A stretch of DNA of 64,000 nt from Escherichia coli 042 (GTDB taxonomy: Bacteria; Pseudomonadota; Gammaproteobacteria; Enterobacterales; Enterobacteriaceae): the NCBI RefSeq assembly GCF_000027125.1, contig NC_017626.1; one strand, 5' to 3'. This document shows, in pieces, positions 27,003 to 64,000 of the stretch (the stretch's first letter is position 1; each line of letters opens with the position of its first letter). The notes beneath the pieces were generated by a model that was given only the letters and a program-made list of their open reading frames with translations, had not been told where the DNA came from and ran no database searches. A program made the translations under genes and the position numbers.

Positions 27003-27176
27003 ATGACGACACTTATTTATTTGCAAATTCCTGTCCCTGAACCGATTCCTGGCGATCCTGTTCCAGTGCCCGATCCGATCCCTCGCCCGCAACCCATGCC
27101 TGACCCACCACCCGACGAAGAACCGATTAAATTGTCGCATCGTGAGCGTAGATCTGCGAGGATACGCGCCTGCTAA
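27003..27176 (+). CDS. Small proline-rich protein, 57 aa (not in the 60-aa ORF track)
   Basis: ATG 27003 preceded by GGAGGG RBS; translation MTTLIYLQIPVPEPIPGDPVPVPDPIPRPQPMPDPPPDEEPIKLSHRERRSARIRAC. Confidence 0.4.
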   Translation: MTTLIYLQIPVPEPIPGDPVPVPDPIPRPQPMPDPPPDEEPIKLSHRERRSARIRAC

Positions 27177-28707: not shown

Positions 28708-29643
28708 TTATTTCACTTCAACCACATTCAGTCGTAACTCATCCAACTGATTTTCATCTTCTTCAGGCTGCCAACCCGCCGGTTGTAGAGGGATCTCTTC
28801 GCGATCAAACGCCAGATCACCCCCGTTAACCACTTCAGAACCGTGGGTAATGCCTTTGAAATCGAACAGGTTGGTATCGCACAGATGCGACGGCACCACA
28901 TTCTGCATCGCGCTGAACATCGTCTCGATACGCCCCGGATAACGTTTATCCCAGTCACGCAACATGTCAGCAATCACCTGACGTTGCAGGTTAGGCTGTG
29001 AACCGCACAGGTTGCACGGAATAATCGGGAACGCTTTTGCATCGGCAAAGCGCTGAATATCTTTCTCGCGGCAGTAGGCCAGCGGGCGAATCACGATATG
29101 TTTGCCATCATCGCTCATCAGTTTCGGAGGCATACCTTTCATCTTGCCGCCGTAGAACATATTTAAGAACAACGTTTGCAGGATATCGTCACGATGGTGA
29201 CCCAGCGCGATCTTCGTCGCTCCCAGTTCCGTTGCGGTACGATAAAGGATACCGCGACGAAGACGAGAACACAGTGAGCAAGTGGTTTTGCCCTCCGGAA
29301 TCTTCTCTTTCACGATACCGTAAGTGTTCTCTTCCACAATCTTGTACTCAACGCCCAGCTTTTCAAGATACTCGGGCAGAACGTGTTCCGGGAAGCCCGG
29401 TTGTTTTTGATCGAGGTTGACAGCCACCAGCGAAAAATTGATTGGCGCGCTTTGCTGCAAATTGCGCAGAATTTCCAGCATGGTATAGCTGTCTTTACCC
29501 CCGGAGAGGCAAACCATGATGCGATCGCCTTCTTCAATCATATTGAAGTCAGCAATGGCTTCGCCCACGTTACGACGCAGACGTTTTTGTAATTTGTTCA
29601 GGTTGTATATCTCTTTCTTCGTATTCTTTTGATTTTCTTGCAT
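28708..29643 (-). CDS. ttcA: tRNA-cytidine(32) 2-sulfurtransferase TtcA
   Basis: 311 aa, PP-loop SGGKDS and CxxC motifs. Confidence 0.9.
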
Positions 29644-29694
29644 TATTTCAGTTCTCTGGTACTAAATGGGGCAAATTGGGGGCAAACTTTGCAA

Positions 29695-30930
29695 CTACGA
29701 TAACCGCGCATTCAACATAGCTACCTGTTCGTCGTTCATGTCATCAATCCACATACCGTAAATTTCATACACCATCTGCGCAGTTTCATGCCCCATCTGG
29801 CTGGCTATAAATGCCGGGTTCGCTCCTGCCGTCAACAGCCAGCAGGCAAAAGTATGTCGCGTATGGTACGGATTACGGCGGCGAATACCAGCACGTTTTA
29901 CTGCTGCATTCCATCTCGCACCCAAACTGCTTACCGAGTAATAAGGTTTCTGTTTTCCGTTACACATCCTGGGCATGAAAACAAAATGCAGTTTGTGCTT
30001 TTCGGTTCTGCCGTACTCCCGATGATAAAAAGTGATTTCGCTTTTGCGATGATGCCCGGTCAGTTTGTATTGCTCCTTCAGTGCTTCAAGAGCTGGCTGT
30101 AGTAGTGTTACCGTCCGGATCCCCGCATTTGTTTTTGGGGGACCGAACATATCAAGTATCGTCAGGTTTCTTCTGACATTCACAATTCCCTTCTCGAAAT
30201 CCACATCCTCCCACGCCAGAGCTGCCAGTTCCCCGTGACGAAGCCCGGAGTAAACGGCAAATTTCCACAAGTTCTGGCTCTGTCCTTTTTCACTTTCCAT
30301 TAATGCATTGAATTCTGTTTTAGATAACGGATCAGGCTTTATTCTGTTTCGCTGTAATTTTTTTACTCCTTCAAATGGTTTGGTTGATATAAATCCCGAC
30401 TGATACGCAAAACGTAACAACGAACAGAGCAGGGCGATATAGTTATCAACTGTGCGCACGGTTCTTCCTTTTTTGTTGGATCTTGGATTATCTAGGTAAA
30501 GTGTTTCTCCATGCAGCAGTTCATTCCGGTAGTTTAAGATATCGCTATAACGAATATGTGATATTGGGGTACTCTCACAAATTATTATCCTGAGTGTTTT
30601 TAATTGTGATTTCGTTTTCTTCATTGTGTTTGTTGTTAACTCTGTCTCTTTAATTTTTGTCCAGATATCACAAAGCTCCCCGAACGTTTTTATGACCCTC
30701 GTTGTCACCATTTTTGCCCCAGTGCTGGACTGGGGAAAACGTCTTAAATACTCAAATTCACCGGAGTTGATTTCATGAACTATCAACGCTCTTAAATTCC
30801 CGGCCTTTTTAATGTTACTGTTAGTAACCTCCCAGCCTTTCAATGTTTCCCGACATCGTTTTCCTCGAAACATGAACCAGATGCGAATGTATTTACCTCG
30901 AATCTCGACACCTGTTGGTAATTTAGACAT
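29695..30930 (-). CDS. intR: Rac-type prophage integrase (tyrosine recombinase)
   Basis: 411 aa; C-terminal R..HxxR..Y catalytic residues (HTRHTFACWL...Y); adjacent to ttcA 5' end. Confidence 0.85.
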   Translation of the reverse strand: MSKLPTGVEIRGKYIRIWFMFRGKRCRETLKGWEVTNSNIKKAGNLRALIVHEINSGEFEYLRRFPQSSTGAKMVTTRVIKTFGELCDIWTKIKETELTTNTMKKTKSQLKTLRIIICESTPISHIRYSDILNYRNELLHGETLYLDNPRSNKKGRTVRTVDNYIALLCSLLRFAYQSGFISTKPFEGVKKLQRNRIKPDPLSKTEFNALMESEKGQSQNLWKFAVYSGLRHGELAALAWEDVDFEKGIVNVRRNLTILDMFGPPKTNAGIRTVTLLQPALEALKEQYKLTGHHRKSEITFYHREYGRTEKHKLHFVFMPRMCNGKQKPYYSVSSLGARWNAAVKRAGIRRRNPYHTRHTFACWLLTAGANPAFIASQMGHETAQMVYEIYGMWIDDMNDEQVAMLNARLS

Positions 30931-30931
30931 A

Positions 30932-31147
30932 TCATGAGTCTTTGATAAACTGATTTATCTTTGGATAGTTGTACCAGATAATCCCTCGCTTACTGTCTGG
31001 TTTCCCTAAAGGAGATACTCGTTTGAAGTGGAAGCCTTCCTCCCAACAGTTCTGACGGTATGCTTCAATTTGTCTGGCCCCCAGACCAGTGCGAAGCATC
31101 AGGCCGTATTCAACCATCCACTCTTCATTAAAGATTACTTGTGCCAT
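30932..31147 (-). CDS. xisR: Prophage excisionase-like protein
   Basis: 71 aa from [10 protein letters not shown]...; immediately upstream of int. Confidence 0.75.
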
Positions 31148-31246: not shown

Positions 31247-31435
31247 TCACGACGACTGAAGTTTCTCGCAATTAAAATTTATCAGTTTTACTTTCTGCTC
31301 TCTGGAAACGCCTGCTTCTTTTTTACCTGAGAGCATTTTTTCGCATTCTGATTTGGTTAATTTTGTTTTTGAGTACCTTGTCCAGTTAGTAGGAGTGCCA
31401 CCTTCCTTTTCAATAGTGGCGGTAATTTTATACAT
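31247..31435 (-). CDS. ydaC: Rac prophage small protein YdaC-like
   Basis: Start chosen at MYKITATIEK... preceded by GGAGG RBS; start uncertain (in-frame upstream Mets). Confidence 0.55.
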   Translation of the reverse strand: MYKITATIEKEGGTPTNWTRYSKTKLTKSECEKMLSGKKEAGVSREQKVKLINFNCEKLQSS

Positions 31436-31622
31436 GAACACCTCCATTATTATTTCCAGTGGTTCGTTTATTCCATCGTTCGAGTGCTTCTTTTTCACTT
31501 CCACCATAGCCGGTTCGGGATTCGCATCCGTTACACTTCGCGCGGTAATATCCTGAAATGGCTTTCACCGTTACTGATGGACAACCACAAAAAGGGCATG
31601 GTTTGACTTTTTCATACCGCAT
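31428..31622 (-). CDS. lar: Restriction alleviation protein Lar (RalR)
   Basis: 64 aa MRYEKVKPCPFCGCPSVTVKAISGYYRAKCNGCESRTGY..., Cys4 zinc-ribbon-like. Confidence 0.7.
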   Translation of the reverse strand: MRYEKVKPCPFCGCPSVTVKAISGYYRAKCNGCESRTGYGGSEKEALERWNKRTTGNNNGGVHV

Positions 31623-31685: not shown

Positions 31686-32789
31686 TCAGGAGCCGATATA
31701 TTCTGGTTTCATATCTGTCAGTGTCGTTTTATACGCCTCATATAATTCACCCAGATGTGGCCGGGCAGCATTCAGCGTATTTTCCAGAGCAGTAAATTTT
31801 TGTTCTGCTTCTGGATCACCTGATGAAGGAAGGTCATTTATCATCTTCTCGATACTGGCAATAGCATTGAGACGGTGATGACGCCGAACCACTTTTCCTT
31901 TAAGCTCGGCAAAGAATTCGCCGATCTGGTTTTTCTGATCCTCTATCTCTTGGCGTAATGCAGTGGTTTCCTCAGTCGTGGCCGCGCTTTCGACACGCTG
32001 CCGGAATTCATCAATCCACGCTTCGTCAATACGCTGTTCGATGGTTTCTGTTCGCTGCTCGCTTACCTCGCTATAATTCTGTACCGGCACAGGATTGATG
32101 ATTTTTTCCTGTGGCTCTTCCAGTTCGTCCGGAGTATACACGCCCAGGATGACGTCAGGACAATAAAGGCGAGCCCAGTATTTCAACGCCAGATAGGCGA
32201 GCTGTTGTTTCGGGTTTGAGGTCCATAAAGGAGAATTACGCGTAATCACGCTGGAAAGAAACACCGGTTCTCCCCAGGTAATCTCACTTTCACCGCGAAG
32301 AACTGCACCAACTCGAACTGATAGACCATACTCATCTTCACTGGTCCAACATGGGATCGTTTCTTTTTTCTCATAGATTCCGCCTCCTTTGGCCGTTTTC
32401 TTAACGGTCTCCACTCGGGTGCGAGAGCATTTCTCCCAGTCTCCCTCGTACTTGTAATGGAAGCGGCCTACAATTGCACTTGAGCTAGAGATCACAGCGT
32501 TAACCAGTTGTGCTTCATAACCCAGAACTCCGTTTACCAGGTGTGTTTTCTGAGCCACAGCGTAGGGGTTCATGCCCCATTGCATGGCTTGCATGATGAT
32601 TGCCATGCAGTCGGCAGGATTTCCGCGAAGGTGATCGGGAACTGTGACGGTGGCCTGTGACATCAACCTGGCTACTGCCTGAAGTTGCGTCAACGCCTGA
32701 ACGTTAAAAATAGTGTTACTGGCAGAAATGGTATTTGGTGTCTGCTCTGTCGTGATGATATTGGTATTTTGCATGGTCAGGTTCTCCAT
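31686..32789 (-). CDS. Phage single-strand annealing recombinase in the recT position, divergent from K-12 RecT
   Basis: 367 aa; sits directly downstream of recE-like gene with ATGA overlap; sequence not matching remembered K-12 RecT. Confidence 0.55.
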   Translation of the reverse strand: MENLTMQNTNIITTEQTPNTISASNTIFNVQALTQLQAVARLMSQATVTVPDHLRGNPADCMAIIMQAMQWGMNPYAVAQKTHLVNGVLGYEAQLVNAVISSSSAIVGRFHYKYEGDWEKCSRTRVETVKKTAKGGGIYEKKETIPCWTSEDEYGLSVRVGAVLRGESEITWGEPVFLSSVITRNSPLWTSNPKQQLAYLALKYWARLYCPDVILGVYTPDELEEPQEKIINPVPVQNYSEVSEQRTETIEQRIDEAWIDEFRQRVESAATTEETTALRQEIEDQKNQIGEFFAELKGKVVRRHHRLNAIASIEKMINDLPSSGDPEAEQKFTALENTLNAARPHLGELYEAYKTTLTDMKPEYIGS

Positions 32790-35700
32790 TAAGCCAGATG
32801 CAGTGCTTCAAGACGACGAAGATCAAAGTCGTTTAATTCGTCGGTATAACTTTCGGTAATCGGTGCTGGCCAGTTGTTTGTCTCCAGGGCTTCGTTTATC
32901 TGGCGTAGCGTCCGGCGATATTCCTGTCGACCAAGTTCCAGGAGTTCCTGCGAGGCTTCCACGACAGCCACCCAGTGATAGCCAGCATCTTTGTTGACGA
33001 AGATCCAGAAAAATTTTTCCAGGTTTGCCACATCGCAATACATTGCGGCGCTGAGGTGATAATCACGCTCAATAATTTCACGGTGCAGGCGATCTTTAAG
33101 TCGTTCCTGCCGCACATAACCGAGGCTGACTGACTTCACGTCGGCGCAAATGCTTTCGTATGGCAGCCGGATTTCGATATCAGGACGGACCCTGATTTCC
33201 AGCCCGGTTTCTTCATCAAACCCGAAATAGCTGATTTCAGATTTGCGATCCGGGTGGTTGAGTAGCCTTGCCGCATCAGTATTGTTTTGCAGTGCCGCGT
33301 GAATATTTTTTGCCTGTTCATACATATCCGGACTGATAAACGTTTTCCCGGCGTTTTCTTCTTGCTGGCGTTTTTGCCAGTCCTCCAGTGTCACCAGTTC
33401 CGGGCGAATTTTCCGTGCGATTTCGGTTAATTGCTCTTTCGTGCCACTGATGTTGTAAGGCAAAGATTTAGCACGTTCTTTTTTTGCCAGTTCTGGGTCT
33501 ACAGTTTCAATTTGATCCAGAAGTTGCTCCCGTGCTCCACTGGTTTTCAACAGAGGAGGGAGGCTTGCGTTGTATTCTTTAATACAGGCTTTCATTGCTG
33601 ATGCTGTGTGTTTTTCCCCCTCAGGGATACGCCGAAATTCCACCGGAAGCGAACCGTAAAGGATGCCTGTTTCTTCGGCCCCAGCACTTACAGACAGTGG
33701 CTGTATAAGAGTGCTGTTGTAGCTTTCGATCCACTCTTTCATCTGCTCTGGTGTCATCAGTGCTGGCAGACTGGCATTGTGTTTTTTAATGATGGCGATC
33801 AGTTCGTTAGAAGTAGTAACCACATATTCAGGAACCGGTACCGGAATGGCATATTCATCAGCGAATTTATCCGTTTCCAGAACATAGCTGTGAATGATCC
33901 TCCCACGCAGCAGTGCATCACTTTCCTCATTCGGAATAGTTCCGGCAATGTGCCGCCCGTGGTAATACATCAGGCTGATACGGGCATCCTTCAGCATCGT
34001 GCTGCTTATTCCGTTGGCGGAGTGATAAACCTCGTTCGGGAGGTTTTCATAGCGGCCTGGCTCGAAATATGACGGCCACATGATTTCAGTTGCTACAGGA
34101 GCTGACGCTTCACCAGTTTGATCACTGCAATCACGATGCGGATCGCTGCCAGCATTCTCATTGTGCGGATGTTCAGCGCCTTCCATTTCCACCGGATCTT
34201 TTTCCTTAGCTTCAACCTGATTCTCTTCATCGAATGTTTCCTGGTATGTTGCGTCGCCCATCACCGCGCCACAGTCAGGGCAGTTACTGCCGCCGGTCTG
34301 ACCGCAGGCGGCGCAGACTTTTTCCGGTTCCTGTTGCGCTTCTGGTTCATTTTGTCGCGAATTTTGGCCGTTTTGTTCCGATTTTCGGTCGTTCTGTTCC
34401 GTTTTTGGCTGATGCTGGTACACAGAATCGCGGGTCTGGATCCCCTTAACCCATTTCGGATCATTCGGGTCGCTAATCCCTTCAACAAATTCTCCGCGAT
34501 AGGCAGCCAGTAATTTGTCTGCATCAACAGAATTTACCTGTGACTGAGCATCCAGCGGCTGCGTGTCCTGATGATGTTCAGTTGCATCCGGTTCCACTGT
34601 TTCAGCCGTTGCCTGTTCATCTGCCATTGCGCCAGATGGTTGCGGTTTTTCTTCATCATTCTGTTTTCCCTCCTCTGTTACACGCTGCGGCATCGGGGCA
34701 GAGGAGCGACCGCAGGCAATATCCACGATTTCCGGATCAGGGTTGGCATGATCGGTTTCAGTCAGTACTTTGTTCAGATATTCTGTGACGTGCGCGGGGA
34801 TGACCTCGATCCCAATTGGTGCTTCTTTCACGGACGCAACCACGATGGCGCGAGAATAATCCAGCCCGCCAGGCATGGTGATGAATTTGTCGCGGAAAAC
34901 AGAAAAGGGCGGTTTATTTTCAGCGATAATTTCCTCAATGCGTTTAGCGTGTGCCGGATGAAGGTTATAGATGTCCACGTCCATTGAACGGGCCAGTACG
35001 CCAGTGGCTACGTCGCGCGCCAGTGACGTAAGATCGTGGACGAAACCTTCGCCGCGATCGGTGAGGTTCCCGCCGCCAGCATTAGCACCGGAAGCCGTGC
35101 GAGTGATGCGTGAAACACGATTACCCTTCATCCACTCTTTTGTCAGCAGTCCTCGATCGGTGTAGTCAGCGTTCAGGTATACTTCGAAAAAAGCAGTTAA
35201 CAGTCCCAAGTCTGAATTACCAGGATTAGGGAAAACTTTGTCAGTGTCACGAACCAGTTTGTGGAGATCGCGAATTTCCAGCGGGTCGAGCAGGCTGGTT
35301 TTGTGGGAAACAGCCAGGGCAGTAACAGCCGGTAGTTCTTCAGCCCGTGCAATGTGTAATGCCTGGAGTTCGCCGCGTGAAACGTGCGTTACCGGTTTTT
35401 CGCTGCCGTGTTGAGCAAGCCAACGAATGGGCAGTTCCTGGCCAGAAATTGGGAGTAGCATATTCTCCTCAATCTCAGTCATGTCTTCGCCGTTGACGTT
35501 GGTATTGCCTTGATAGTGAGCGTTGTCTGGTGCTGCTCCCGGTTTTAGTTCCCATGTCATGGAGTCTTTGCTGAGTTGATAGCGTTCACTCCAGGTAAAA
35601 TCGATCTCACCTTCAGCGGGCAGGTCATTAACGACAGGAAAATTCGTGGCAACAGCTTTAAAATAGCTGCTCAGTTTTTTACCTGACTTAACGATCTGGT

Positions 35701-35812
35701 AGTCCAGAGTGGCACAGGTCGATTCAAAATCGTCACTTGCCCACAGGACGACGTCAGGTTCACCGGATGATTTTTTCGCTTTCCGTAACAGGAAGAGTGG
35801 TTTTGTGCTCAT
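32789..35812 (-). CDS. recE: RecE-like exonuclease VIII: N-terminal region like K-12 RecE, C-terminal nuclease domain divergent
   Basis: 1007 aa; N-terminus [26 protein letters not shown]... matches remembered RecE; C-terminal third differs. Confidence 0.7.
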
Positions 35813-45665: not shown

Positions 45666-45741
<76 letters not shown>

Positions 45742-45744
45742 TAT

Positions 45745-45819
<75 letters not shown>

Positions 45820-47769: not shown

Positions 47770-47906
47770 AATCTTAACTACAATATGATTCATTTTGATG
47801 ATTGTTTCATAAGGAACAGTGAAGTAAGATCTAAGATGAGTTAAATTTTATACAGTATAATCATAATGTTGCAGCAAGGTGGTTATAATTGAAAGAATAT
47901 TTAGAT

Positions 47907-49364
47907 ATGAATACATCTCATGTAAGAGTTGTTACTCATATGTGTGGGTTCCTGGTTTGGCTCTATAGTCTTTCAATGTTGCCACCAATGGTTGTAGCAT
48001 TGTTTTATAAAGAAAAAAGCCTGTTCGTTTTCTTTATAACTTTCGTTATATTTTTTTGCATTGGTGGCGGAGCGTGGTATACAACTAAGAAATCTGGTAT
48101 TCAATTACGTACCCGTGATGGGTTTATTATAATTGTAATGTTTTGGATTTTGTTTTCTGTTATTAGTGCATTCCCTTTATGGATTGACTCAGAACTTAAT
48201 TTAACGTTTATTGATGCTCTATTTGAAGGGGTTTCTGGAATAACAACAACAGGAGCAACTGTAATTGATGATGTTAGTTCATTACCTCGGGCATATTTGT
48301 ACTATCGGTCACAGTTAAATTTTATAGGTGGCTTAGGAGTTATTGTTCTGGCGGTTGCTGTATTGCCATTATTGGGTATTGGTGGTGCAAAGCTTTATCA
48401 GTCAGAAATGCCAGGGCCATTTAAGGATGACAAACTTACTCCCCGCCTGGCCGATACGTCACGGACACTTTGGATAACTTATTCTTTATTAGGTATTGCT
48501 TGTATTGTCTGTTATAGACTTGCAGGAATGCCTTTGTTTGATGCTATTTGTCACGGGATATCCACAGTTTCGCTTGGTGGTTTCTCAACTCATAGCGAGA
48601 GTATCGGATATTTTAATAACTATTTGGTTGAGCTGGTGGCTGGTTCTTTTTCCCTGCTATCGGCTTTCAACTTCACCCTTTGGTATATTGTTATTAGCAG
48701 GAAAACGTTAAAACCTTTAATCAGAGATATTGAACTTCGTTTCTTTCTGTTAATAGCCTTAGGGGTGATCATTGTTACCTCTTTCCAGGTCTGGCATATA
48801 GGTATGTATGACTTGCCTGGAAGTTTTATTCATTCGTTTTTTCTTGCCAGCTCCATGCTCACTGATAATGGTTTAGCTACGCAGGATTACGCAAACTGGC
48901 CCACGCACACGATAGTGTTTTTGCTGTTGTCAAGTTTCTTTGGGGGATGTATAGGTTCAACTTGTGGTGGAATTAAGTCACTTCGATTTCTTATACTTTT
49001 CAAACAAAGCAAACACGAGATAAACCAGCTTTCTCATCCCAGAGCGTTGTTGAGTGTAAATGTAGGAGGGAAGATAGTTACAGATCGTGTAATGAGGTCT
49101 GTATGGAGTTTCTTTTTTCTTTATACTCTCTTCACGGTGTTTTTTATACTGGTGTTAAATGGTATGGGATATGATTTTCTTACATCATTTGCAACAGTGG
49201 CTGCATGTATTAATAATATGGGATTAGGTTTTGGGGCTACTGCATCGTCATTCGGAGTGCTTAATGACATTGCAAAATATTTAATGTGCATAGCTATGAT
49301 TCTTGGTCGCCTTGAAATTTATCCTGTTATTATATTGTTTTCAGGTTTTTTTTGGCGCTCCTAA
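47907..49364 (+). CDS. trkG: Potassium uptake protein TrkG (TrkH family), prophage moron
   Basis: 485 aa from MNTSHVRVVTHMCGFLVWLYSL...; visibly AT-rich relative to flanks. Confidence 0.9.
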   Translation: MNTSHVRVVTHMCGFLVWLYSLSMLPPMVVALFYKEKSLFVFFITFVIFFCIGGGAWYTTKKSGIQLRTRDGFIIIVMFWILFSVISAFPLWIDSELNLTFIDALFEGVSGITTTGATVIDDVSSLPRAYLYYRSQLNFIGGLGVIVLAVAVLPLLGIGGAKLYQSEMPGPFKDDKLTPRLADTSRTLWITYSLLGIACIVCYRLAGMPLFDAICHGISTVSLGGFSTHSESIGYFNNYLVELVAGSFSLLSAFNFTLWYIVISRKTLKPLIRDIELRFFLLIALGVIIVTSFQVWHIGMYDLPGSFIHSFFLASSMLTDNGLATQDYANWPTHTIVFLLLSSFFGGCIGSTCGGIKSLRFLILFKQSKHEINQLSHPRALLSVNVGGKIVTDRVMRSVWSFFFLYTLFTVFFILVLNGMGYDFLTSFATVAACINNMGLGFGATASSFGVLNDIAKYLMCIAMILGRLEIYPVIILFSGFFWRS

Positions 49365-62186: not shown

Positions 62187-64000
62187 ATGGCAGAGCAAAC
62201 CTCGCGTCTCGCAATAATTATTGATAGCACTGGAGCGAAAAATAATGCTGACAATCTGGCCTCCTCATTAGTCAAAATGACGCAGGCTGGGGAAACTGCT
62301 GCAAATAGCGCAGGGAAAGTGACTAAGGCAACAGAAGATGAGAAGAACGCGCTCGCAAAATTAAAAGCAGCTATTGATCCAGTTGGTGCCGCAATTGATA
62401 CTGTCGGTCGACGCTATTCTGAATTAAAGAAATTTTTCGATAAAGGGCTTATTGATAAAGAAGAATATGAATTTCTTGTCCGTAAACTTAATGAAACCAC
62501 AGAGGAATTGAGCGGGGTTGCGCAAGCGCAGAGAGAAGCCGAGAAGGCCGGAAAACTTGCTGCCGCCCAGCAGGAAGCGCAGGCTCAGGTCTTTCAAAGA
62601 ATGCTGGACAAGATCGACCCTCTGGCTGCGGCGCTAAGAAATCTTGAACAACAGCAGGATGAACTTAATGCTGCGTTTGCATCCGGGAAAATAAATGGTT
62701 CTCAGTTTGAGAATTATAGCCGAAAAATACAGGAAACACGGCGAGAGCTTACCGGAGAGGCTCAGGCAGAGCGAGAAGCAGCAAAAGCACATGATGAACA
62801 GGTTGCTGCTTTGCAACGTCTGATTGCTCAACTTGATCCTGTCGGAACTGCTTTTAATCGTCTGGTAGAACAACAGAAACAGCTCAATGAAGCAAAAGCT
62901 AAGGGGATGCTTTCTCCTGAAATGTATGAGGAGCTTTCTGGAAAACTTCGTGCTATGCGGAGTGAGCTTGAGGTTACTCAATCGCAATTAAGCAAAACCG
63001 GAATGTCGGCAAAACAAACGGCTTTTGCTATGCGCATGTTGCCTGCACAAATGACGGATATTGTTGTTGGGTTGTCCACTGGTCAGTCGCCATTTATGGT
63101 GTTAATGCAGCAGGGCGGCCAGCTAAAAGATATGTTCGGTGGGATTGGCCCGGCGATCAAAGGTGTAGGTTCTTATGTGCTGGGATTAATTAATCCTTTT
63201 ACCCTGGCCGCAGCAGCCGTTGGCGTCTTAGGGCTGGCTTACTATAAAGGCTCTCAGGAGCAGGACGAATTTAATAAATCTCTTATTCTTACCGGAAATC
63301 AGTTGGGGACAACCAGCGGGCAATTGGCCGATATAGCTCAACGTGCCGGGAATGCGGCTGATTCGACAACTGGCGCAGCGGCGGCAGTATTAAACCAGCT
63401 TGTGCGTTCGGGAAAGGTAGCGAGCAGTTCGCTGGAGCAAGTGACGACAGCGATAGTAAAAACGAGCGAAGTAACAGGAATATCAACCGAACAACTGGTT
63501 AATGACTTCAATGAAATTGCAAAGGATCCTGTCAGTGCTATATCAAAACTTAATGATCAGTACCATTTTCTGACACTTGCGACTTATAACCAGATTAAGG
63601 CGCTACAGGATGAAGGGAACCAGCAGGAGGCCGCCCGCATTGCGACAGAAGCATACTCATCCTCAATGATCCAGCGCACCAACCAGATTAAAGAAAATCT
63701 TGGTTATCTTGAGACTGCATGGAAAGCTGTCGCAGACTCCGCAAAATGGGCATGGGATTCCATGCTGGATATTGGCCGTGAGGCCTCCCTTGATCAAAAA
63801 ATCTCAGATGTTCTCCGTCAAATTGATGAAATAGAAAAAAATACCCGACCCGGAGTTTTCGGGTTAGGTGGCATTGGAGATGGCGGAGCTCAAAATAAAA
63901 AGCTGGCACGATTAAAGCAGCAATTGGGCGTACTTCAAGCAGAAAAAATTGCTCAGGACGTACTAAATTCATCAATAAACGATTACAACAAGCGACAACA
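62187..64000 (+). CDS. Tail tape measure protein, N-terminal part (continues beyond window)
   Basis: ATG 62187 ([23 protein letters not shown]...), open to window end; coiled-coil rich, internal hydrophobic block, Gly-rich segments. Confidence 0.75.

Follow-up and report, generated by a model that had tools for sequence, protein, structure and literature searches.

The window (the whole 64,000-nucleotide stretch of DNA analysed here) carries zntB, ynaL, dbpA and ttcA, in this order, followed by a prophage that continues up to the window end (base 64000). On the minus strand, ttcA is an ORF of 311 aa (28708–29643, with its ATG at 29643–29641), whose product scored 513 bits against the TtcA equivalog model NCBIfam NF007972 (cut-off 272). 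Its co-oriented neighbour intR (29695–30930, minus strand; stop codon TAG at 29697–29695) is a 411-aa ORF for a tyrosine integrase with the Pfam domains Arm-DNA-bind_2 (PF12167; aa 5–69, E = 2.2e-26) and Phage_integrase (PF00589; 3e-23), identical to K-12 IntR at 406 of 412 positions (98.5%). The next gene, xisR (ydaQ; 30932–31147, minus strand), encodes a 71-aa excisionase (Pfam DUF1233, putative excisionase, 4e-20) that differs from K-12 XisR by one residue. Beyond xisR there are a DUF1187 gene, a Lar-type gene, recT and recE, and the prophage genes up to base 64000 include those for terminase, capsid and tail; the head and tail genes are intact within the window.

The ttcA start codon and the int stop codon are separated by exactly 51 bp (29644–29694), as had been counted in the preliminary description. 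This segment, which forms the leader of ttcA on the minus strand, is phage-derived and unrelated to the native ttcA upstream sequence; it makes up the outer portion of the P' arm of attP. None of the complete E. coli genomes in the collection searched is identical to the window. The best identity among complete E. coli genomes was 99.7% both for the chromosomal flank (strain 135) and for the late region of the prophage (APEC O1), and the early region was covered to only 89% at best.

In order to delimit the junction, the attL sites of the window, E300010, APEC O1, K56-43-un (K56), strain 135, K-12, SE15, O157, EcPF5 and Rac-SA53 were put in register and compared with the attR sites of K-12, E300010, strain 135 and Rac-SA53; the unoccupied ttcA-uspF locus of strain 2018-02-2CC (L001) served as the attB reference. 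Comparison with the empty site and with attR revealed that bacterium-specific DNA ends at 29593 and that phage-specific DNA begins at 29609 and continues rightwards. In register, the sole stretch identical across attL, attR and attB is the 15-bp sequence TTGTTCAGGTTGTAT (29594–29608), an exact match that corresponds to nt 36–50 of ttcA (codons 12–17). To the left of this core, attL and attB share ...cgtttttgtaat (the body of ttcA) and attR carries ...gatttttgcccttac (the phage P arm). To its right, attB and every attR continue with tgttctttcttactaatttcttgattttgcgaCAT and then native upstream DNA, and the attL of the window with atctctttcttcgtattcttttgattttcttgCAT, then tatttcagttctctgg..., running into int. 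All four attR sites are composed of the P arm, the same 15 bp and the native ttcA 5' end.

The ttcA gene of the window is therefore a hybrid, of which nt 51–936 are bacterial, nt 36–50 form the att core and nt 1–35 are phage-derived. Thus, the segment 29594–29694 is almost certainly the attL of a Rac-like lambdoid prophage integrated in the 5' end of ttcA. The preliminary description had placed the junction in the 5' region of ttcA or directly before it, and the alignments bear this out, with the core lying inside the coding sequence and not upstream of the ATG. The interval proposed there (29600–29700) does overlap the junction, but the core begins 6 bp further to the left, so that 29594–29608 straddles the left edge of that interval.

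When the rest of the window was searched for a second, directly repeated copy of the junction, nothing credible was found (only chance matches of at most 14 bp), because the distal end of the prophage lies outside the window. Since, in addition, there is no identical complete genome, the attR of this prophage was deduced from its relatives. The closest match to its attL is that of E300010, whose prophage is degraded (it contains pseudogenes) and whose attR is clean. A search of the phage collection for a free phage with a contiguous attP found none; the matches were prophage-derived records starting at or spanning the ttcA flank.

It could be argued that the junction lies instead in the 51-bp spacer (29644–29694), that the phage replaces only the promoter and that the N-terminal differences are mere allelic variation of ttcA. 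The spacer is short, the interval of the preliminary description is centred on it, and the megablast matches of non-lysogen genomes seem to extend as far as 29636, near the ATG. However, alignment of the window with the empty site revealed perfect identity up to 29608, patchy similarity between 29609 and 29643 and no similarity beyond 29643; the match over 29609–29636 is merely patchy because the phage arm imitates the gene. Moreover, every lysogen whose right end could be seen has intact native codons 1–12 at its attR, and the N-termini segregate with the neighbouring genes: in the sampled matches, the phage type was always accompanied by an adjacent int and the native type by an adjacent uspF. 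Together with the alignments to the empty site and attR, this division between lysogens and non-lysogens, whose examination had been suggested in the preliminary description, makes a junction in the spacer exceedingly improbable.

Placing the junction at the 15-bp core, the start codon and codons 1–12 (29609–29643, minus strand), the ribosome-binding region and all upstream sequence of the window ttcA are phage DNA. This surrogate 5' end differs from the native one, which encodes MSQNQEISKKEQ in the native gene and in every ttcC' copy. The attL of all nine lysogens examined encodes MQENQ(K/Q)(N/I)TKKE(I/Q), whereas MSQNQEISKKEQ is encoded at the empty site and in all attR copies. The surrogate N-termini in circulation are of at least three kinds: MQENQQITKKEQ in the attL of K-12, SE15, O157 and EcPF5, one common 12-residue version in the window, E300010, APEC O1, K56 and Rac-SA53, and a 12-residue version of its own in strain 135, the strain with the closest chromosomal flank. 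Relative to the native protein, the window allele changes six residues and the K-12 Rac allele four; the swapped residues all precede the PP-loop domain of TtcA, which starts at aa 42.

The P' arm (from 29609 to about 29694) mimics the displaced part of the gene, providing an ATG, a ribosome-binding region and 12 in-frame codons. As the arm carries the in-frame start and these codons, integration rebuilds a full-length ttcA and does not inactivate it. In the relatives, the native ttcA 5' end, a promoter-like site and the uspF terminator are displaced to the distal end of the prophage, as the pseudogene ttcC'. A distal copy of the core with ttcC' beside uspF is present in K-12, E300010, strain 135 and Rac-SA53; APEC O1 and K56 have, in place of the distal ttcC' end, a deletion and an internal P-core-P' site.

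Analysis of complete E. coli genomes revealed that a phage P' arm abuts ttcA in 2907 of 5426 (~54%). The allele found in the window constitutes a minority, with approximately 242 records at ≥99% identity (~4–5% of complete E. coli genomes). Among the sampled matches to the junction query, K-12-type sites displayed ~95% and SE15-type sites ~93.6% identity, and empty sites covered only 55% of the query.

The alleles differ in how far the arm resembles attB. A 26-bp att repeat (29594–29619), as annotated in Rac-SA53, is exact in K-12-type junctions; in the window only 23 of its 26 bases match attB and attR, with ATC instead of TGT at 29609–29611. Judging by these alignments, strand exchange must occur inside the 15-bp core, 29594–29608. 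Alternatively, the integrating phage may have been of the K-12 type, and ATC together with the remaining window-specific substitutions may have been acquired later through mutation or gene conversion; the 15-bp limit would then be uninformative about the crossover. The arm of strain 135 is an intermediate allele (TGT, followed by window-type bases), which indicates that the arm is mosaic and lends this view some support. Against it, the identical ATC occurs in the ~242 records, in varied backgrounds and prophage mosaics (E300010, APEC O1, K56, Rac-SA53), and its counterpart at attR or the internal site is in every case TGT, as would be expected if the phage brought in ATC and the exchange took place left of 29609. 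We therefore consider a post-integration origin very unlikely.

The position of the crossover can also be read from strains that have undergone repeated integration, which represent a natural experiment. In SE15-type strains only a remnant is left beside ttcA, made up of a DUF1627 fragment and a truncated int. In APEC O1 and K56-43-un, a cdt-carrying prophage of the window type (late region 99.3–99.7% identical to that of the window) is located between ttcA and an SE15-type remnant (98.8% identical), which lies downstream of the prophage, and a P-core-P' site separates the two. The right side of this internal site has the allele of the remnant (TGT, K-12 type, with the diagnostic SNPs of the remnant), and the new attL has ATC. 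It follows that the incoming phage recombined with the attL of the remnant, inside the 15 bp; the cdt-carrying prophage of APEC O1-like strains was thus inserted where a remnant was already present. The native attR is deleted in both APEC O1 and K56.

The architecture of the whole attachment site was assessed using a reconstructed attP (615 bp) assembled by joining a K-12 P arm to the core and to the P' arm of the window. It contains seven GGGGCAAA-type repeats, including direct copies at −153, −142, −123 and −112 and an inverted one at −13, directly next to the core; in each attR examined, the P arm shows the same pattern of four direct motifs and one inverted. Two direct repeats in the P' arm (29668–29675 and 29679–29686, plus strand) are, from their sequence pattern, candidate P' arm-type IntR sites. 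Clustering of five exact copies of GGGGCAAA in 615 bp is highly non-random (Poisson P ~2e-10, given the window-wide rate); across the window as a whole the motif is not significantly enriched (6 found vs 3.2 expected), and only the clustering in attP is significant. Five independent P arms adjoining three unrelated cargos, i.e. ynaE (K-12), sitA (E300010 and strain 135) and omptin/cdt (APEC O1 and K56), are homologous only from about −160 to the core, with every copy of GGGGCAAA kept. On this pattern of conservation, the conserved attP is a P arm of ~160 bp, a 15-bp core and a P' arm of ~87 bp, and the GGGGCAAA repeats are candidate arm-type sites of IntR. A literature search on IntR arm-type sites returned nothing relevant.

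Between the core and the P' repeats there is an IHF-like site equivalent to H' (AATCAAAAGAATA; 29622–29634, minus strand), with one mismatch to WATCAANNNNTTR; the versions of this site in K-12 attL and in attB match WATCAANNNNTTR exactly. IHF binding at the equivalent position in K-12 has been reported (PMC8407004).

With these elements, integration may be pictured as follows. IntR possesses the domains typical of a lambda-type heterobivalent integrase and, by analogy with its family, would act as such a recombinase that, together with IHF, recombines the phage attP with the chromosomal attB inside ttcA. The strands would be exchanged within TTGTTCAGGTTGTAT (29594–29608), and XisR would assist in excision.

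Whether this attL still serves as a substrate may be questioned, as the prophage could be grounded and the site a fossil. Many Rac-like elements are degraded (the SE15 remnant, E300010 with its pseudogenes, K-12 Rac), the IHF-like site of the window is mismatched to the consensus, the relatives closest in the late region (APEC O1 and K56) have lost the native attR, and the distal end of the window prophage lies outside the window. On the other hand, int and xis have their full length and hardly differ from the K-12 genes, which are proficient in excision (PMC4632033). The core is intact, as are the two repeats of the P' arm, and the prophage looks complete to base 64000, with intact head and tail genes. 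Even in the APEC O1 layout, the internal P-core-P' site could still act as an excision partner. Loss of function of the attL in the window thus appears unlikely.

The replacement of the ttcA 5' end also has consequences for transcription of the hybrid gene. Upstream of ttcA, the empty site has the uspF terminator and a promoter-like sequence, CTGACA-17-TACCAT. A standard promoter and terminator scan of the window detected neither a sigma-70-like site nor a terminator between int and ttcA. A looser scan alone indicated a weak sigma-70-like candidate, ATGACA-19 nt-TATGTT (29714–29744, minus strand), in the 3' end of int, 71 nt upstream of the ttcA ATG, which must be considered speculative; neither scan found a convincing ttcA promoter in the phage arm. 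Since the native promoter has been displaced to the far end of the prophage, ttcA of the lysogen must be transcribed from phage DNA. The source may be a weak promoter in the 3' end of int or, given that the scan detected no terminator separating int from ttcA, read-through of the co-oriented xis-int transcript. The proposal in the preliminary description that the phage supplies the promoter or the N-terminal codons of ttcA is thus borne out by the alignments for codons 1–12 and the upstream sequence; as regards the promoter, it is the absence of the native one that has been demonstrated.

The Rac/ttcA attachment arrangement is already known from K-12, and the window allele has already been deposited as Rac-SA53. 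The system was described by Liu et al. 2015 (PMC4632033) and reviewed in PMC6379469. In K-12, excision of Rac at the ttcA site changes the N-terminus of TtcA by four residues, XisR binds attR, and the two forms of TtcA differ in carbenicillin fitness (PMC4632033). The same excision, a 23,060-bp deletion, appears in a second paper (PMC11014345), which gives "three base changes, Q6E and T8S" after excision. We interpret these as the aligner counting mismatches before the deletion jump, and consider them compatible with the change of four residues described in PMC4632033.

In NC_000913.3, Rac occupies 1411899–1434958; its left end lies 50 nt inside ttcA, which corresponds to position 29594 of the window, and the distal 51-nt fragment is the pseudogene ttcC (b4638). 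K-12 Rac and the window prophage share the host gene, the left boundary, the first 15 bp of the core, the 51-bp leader, IntR, a near-identical XisR, a hybrid TtcA N-terminus and displacement of the native 5' end to attR. They differ in that the P' arm of K-12 Rac matches attB over 26 bp and that of the window allele over 15 bp, and in that the IHF consensus is exact in K-12, whereas the window allele has one mismatch. Furthermore, K-12 Rac is a 23-kb remnant, whereas the prophage of the window is large, looks complete within the window and has different recET and Lar-type genes.

In Escherichia phage Rac-SA53 (KU052037.1), attL is base-identical to that of the window, including ATC, and the Int DNA is 98.1% identical. 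The annotated 26-bp att of Rac-SA53 starts at the equivalent base, and a matching site is present beside uspF; this distal copy has TGT where attL has ATC, so the repeat matches at 23 of 26 bases and only its first 15 bp are exact. The early region of Rac-SA53 is different and carries ralR. The sites labelled attP and attB by the depositors are in fact attL and attR, the record being a prophage with its flanks. A literature search found no paper on the att site of Rac-SA53.

Prophages that rebuild their target gene are also represented by e14 and phage 21, for which this gene is icd (3' end; summarised in PMC6379469). As in the present case, their arm is a near-copy of the displaced end of the gene, the gene remains intact with few substitutions, and a pseudogene fragment is found at the other end. 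However, e14 and phage 21 replace the 3' end of the gene and the window prophage replaces the 5' end, so here the start codon, the translation signals and the promoter are phage-supplied as well.

The order of elements observed here, i.e. core, IHF-like site, candidate arm sites and int, resembles that of the lambda P' arm. Further common features are an integrase with a separate arm-binding domain, predicted arm repeats flanking a short core, a putative IHF site separating this core from the P' repeats, an excisionase gene adjoining int, and int abutting the P' arm. In contrast, the GGGGCAAA motif and the core are unrelated to those of lambda, and the number and arrangement of the sites are predicted from sequence.

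Our analysis makes minor additions to the literature found: an exchange region of 15 bp (not 26 bp), the six changes in TtcA, the candidate arm sites and the history of tandem integration. These leave the understanding of the Rac/ttcA system unchanged. A more far-reaching joint reading, that the window-type arm is a functionally distinct attP allele and that ttcA of every lysogen is expressed from the int-xis unit, seems to us doubtful and, on balance, unlikely. The distinct-allele part rests on the three extra mismatches after the core, which restrict exchange to 15 bp, on the altered IHF H' site and on the six TtcA changes. If true, a distinct allele could alter the efficiency of excision and integration of cdt- or sit-carrying Rac-like phages, as well as the activity or expression of TtcA; expression from int-xis, if true, would couple an enzyme of tRNA modification to the regulation of prophage excision in more than half of E. 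coli. The locus is a textbook-style example of intragenic integration by a phage that brings a replacement for the displaced piece, and in ~54% of complete E. coli genomes the start and the first dozen codons of TtcA are of phage origin, as its promoter would be.

In strains APEC O1 (locus L005, 20298-22713) and K56-43-un (locus L007), an internal site was found that consists of the core flanked by both phage arms (P-core-P'), and this site is followed by a truncated int remnant, which is 98.8% identical to the remnant present in strain SE15 (locus L010). Moreover, approximately 100 bp have been deleted on the native attR side in both strains. Taken together, the internal site, the SE15-like remnant and the deletion indicate that a cdt-carrying Rac-like phage entered a site which was already occupied.

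The right-end cargo of the Rac-like prophages varies by strain, as was observed for strain 135 (L014, 748-4197), E300010 (L004, 8415-9329), APEC O1 (L005, 14720-19509) and K-12. The cargo types comprise sitABCD, a type IV cdtABC cluster together with hydrolase and omptin genes, and ynaE/pinR (the latter in K-12). This variable cargo abuts a conserved P arm of approximately 160 bp.

The P' arm, which supplies the surrogate 5' end of ttcA, also exists in several forms. The attL of strain 135 (L013, 1201-1250) carries an intermediate allele, with TGT directly after the core and window-type substitutions beyond it; this allele encodes a 12-residue N-terminal stretch (not shown). The intermediate allele shows the surrogate ttcA 5' end to be itself mosaic among phages. 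The GenBank record of Escherichia phage Rac-SA53 (KU052037.1) contains two 26-bp sites (L015, 722-747 and L017, 1162-1187), labelled attP and attB, which differ from each other at 3 of the 26 positions. Since the record represents a prophage flanked by ttcA and uspF, these sites are in fact attL and attR.

In the chromosomal part of the window, a small proline-rich ORF, ynaL (27003-27176, plus strand; PF23677, E = 2e-40), is located between zntB and dbpA.

Within the window prophage, genes for tRNA-Thr (tgt; 45666-45741) and tRNA-Gly (tcc; 45745-45819) lie on the plus strand; these two tRNA genes are also annotated in the Rac-like prophages that E300010 and strain 135 carry. The prophage cargo includes trkG (47889-49364, plus strand), a potassium transporter gene of the TrkH family, which is likewise present in K-12 Rac.

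All the early genes described here lie on the minus strand. A Lar-family restriction-alleviation gene (PF14354; 31428-31637) occupies the position of ralR in the Rac-like prophages of K-12, APEC O1 and K56, and is adjoined and overlapped by a DUF1187 gene (31247-31507). The recT and recE genes (31686-35812; 367 and 1007 aa, respectively) are different alleles from those of K-12 Rac and are longer in the window; RecE contains an Exonuc_VIII domain and a PDDEXK-like DUF3799 domain. The early region is covered to only 82–89% in the best-matching complete genomes, which shows the window prophage to be a mosaic.
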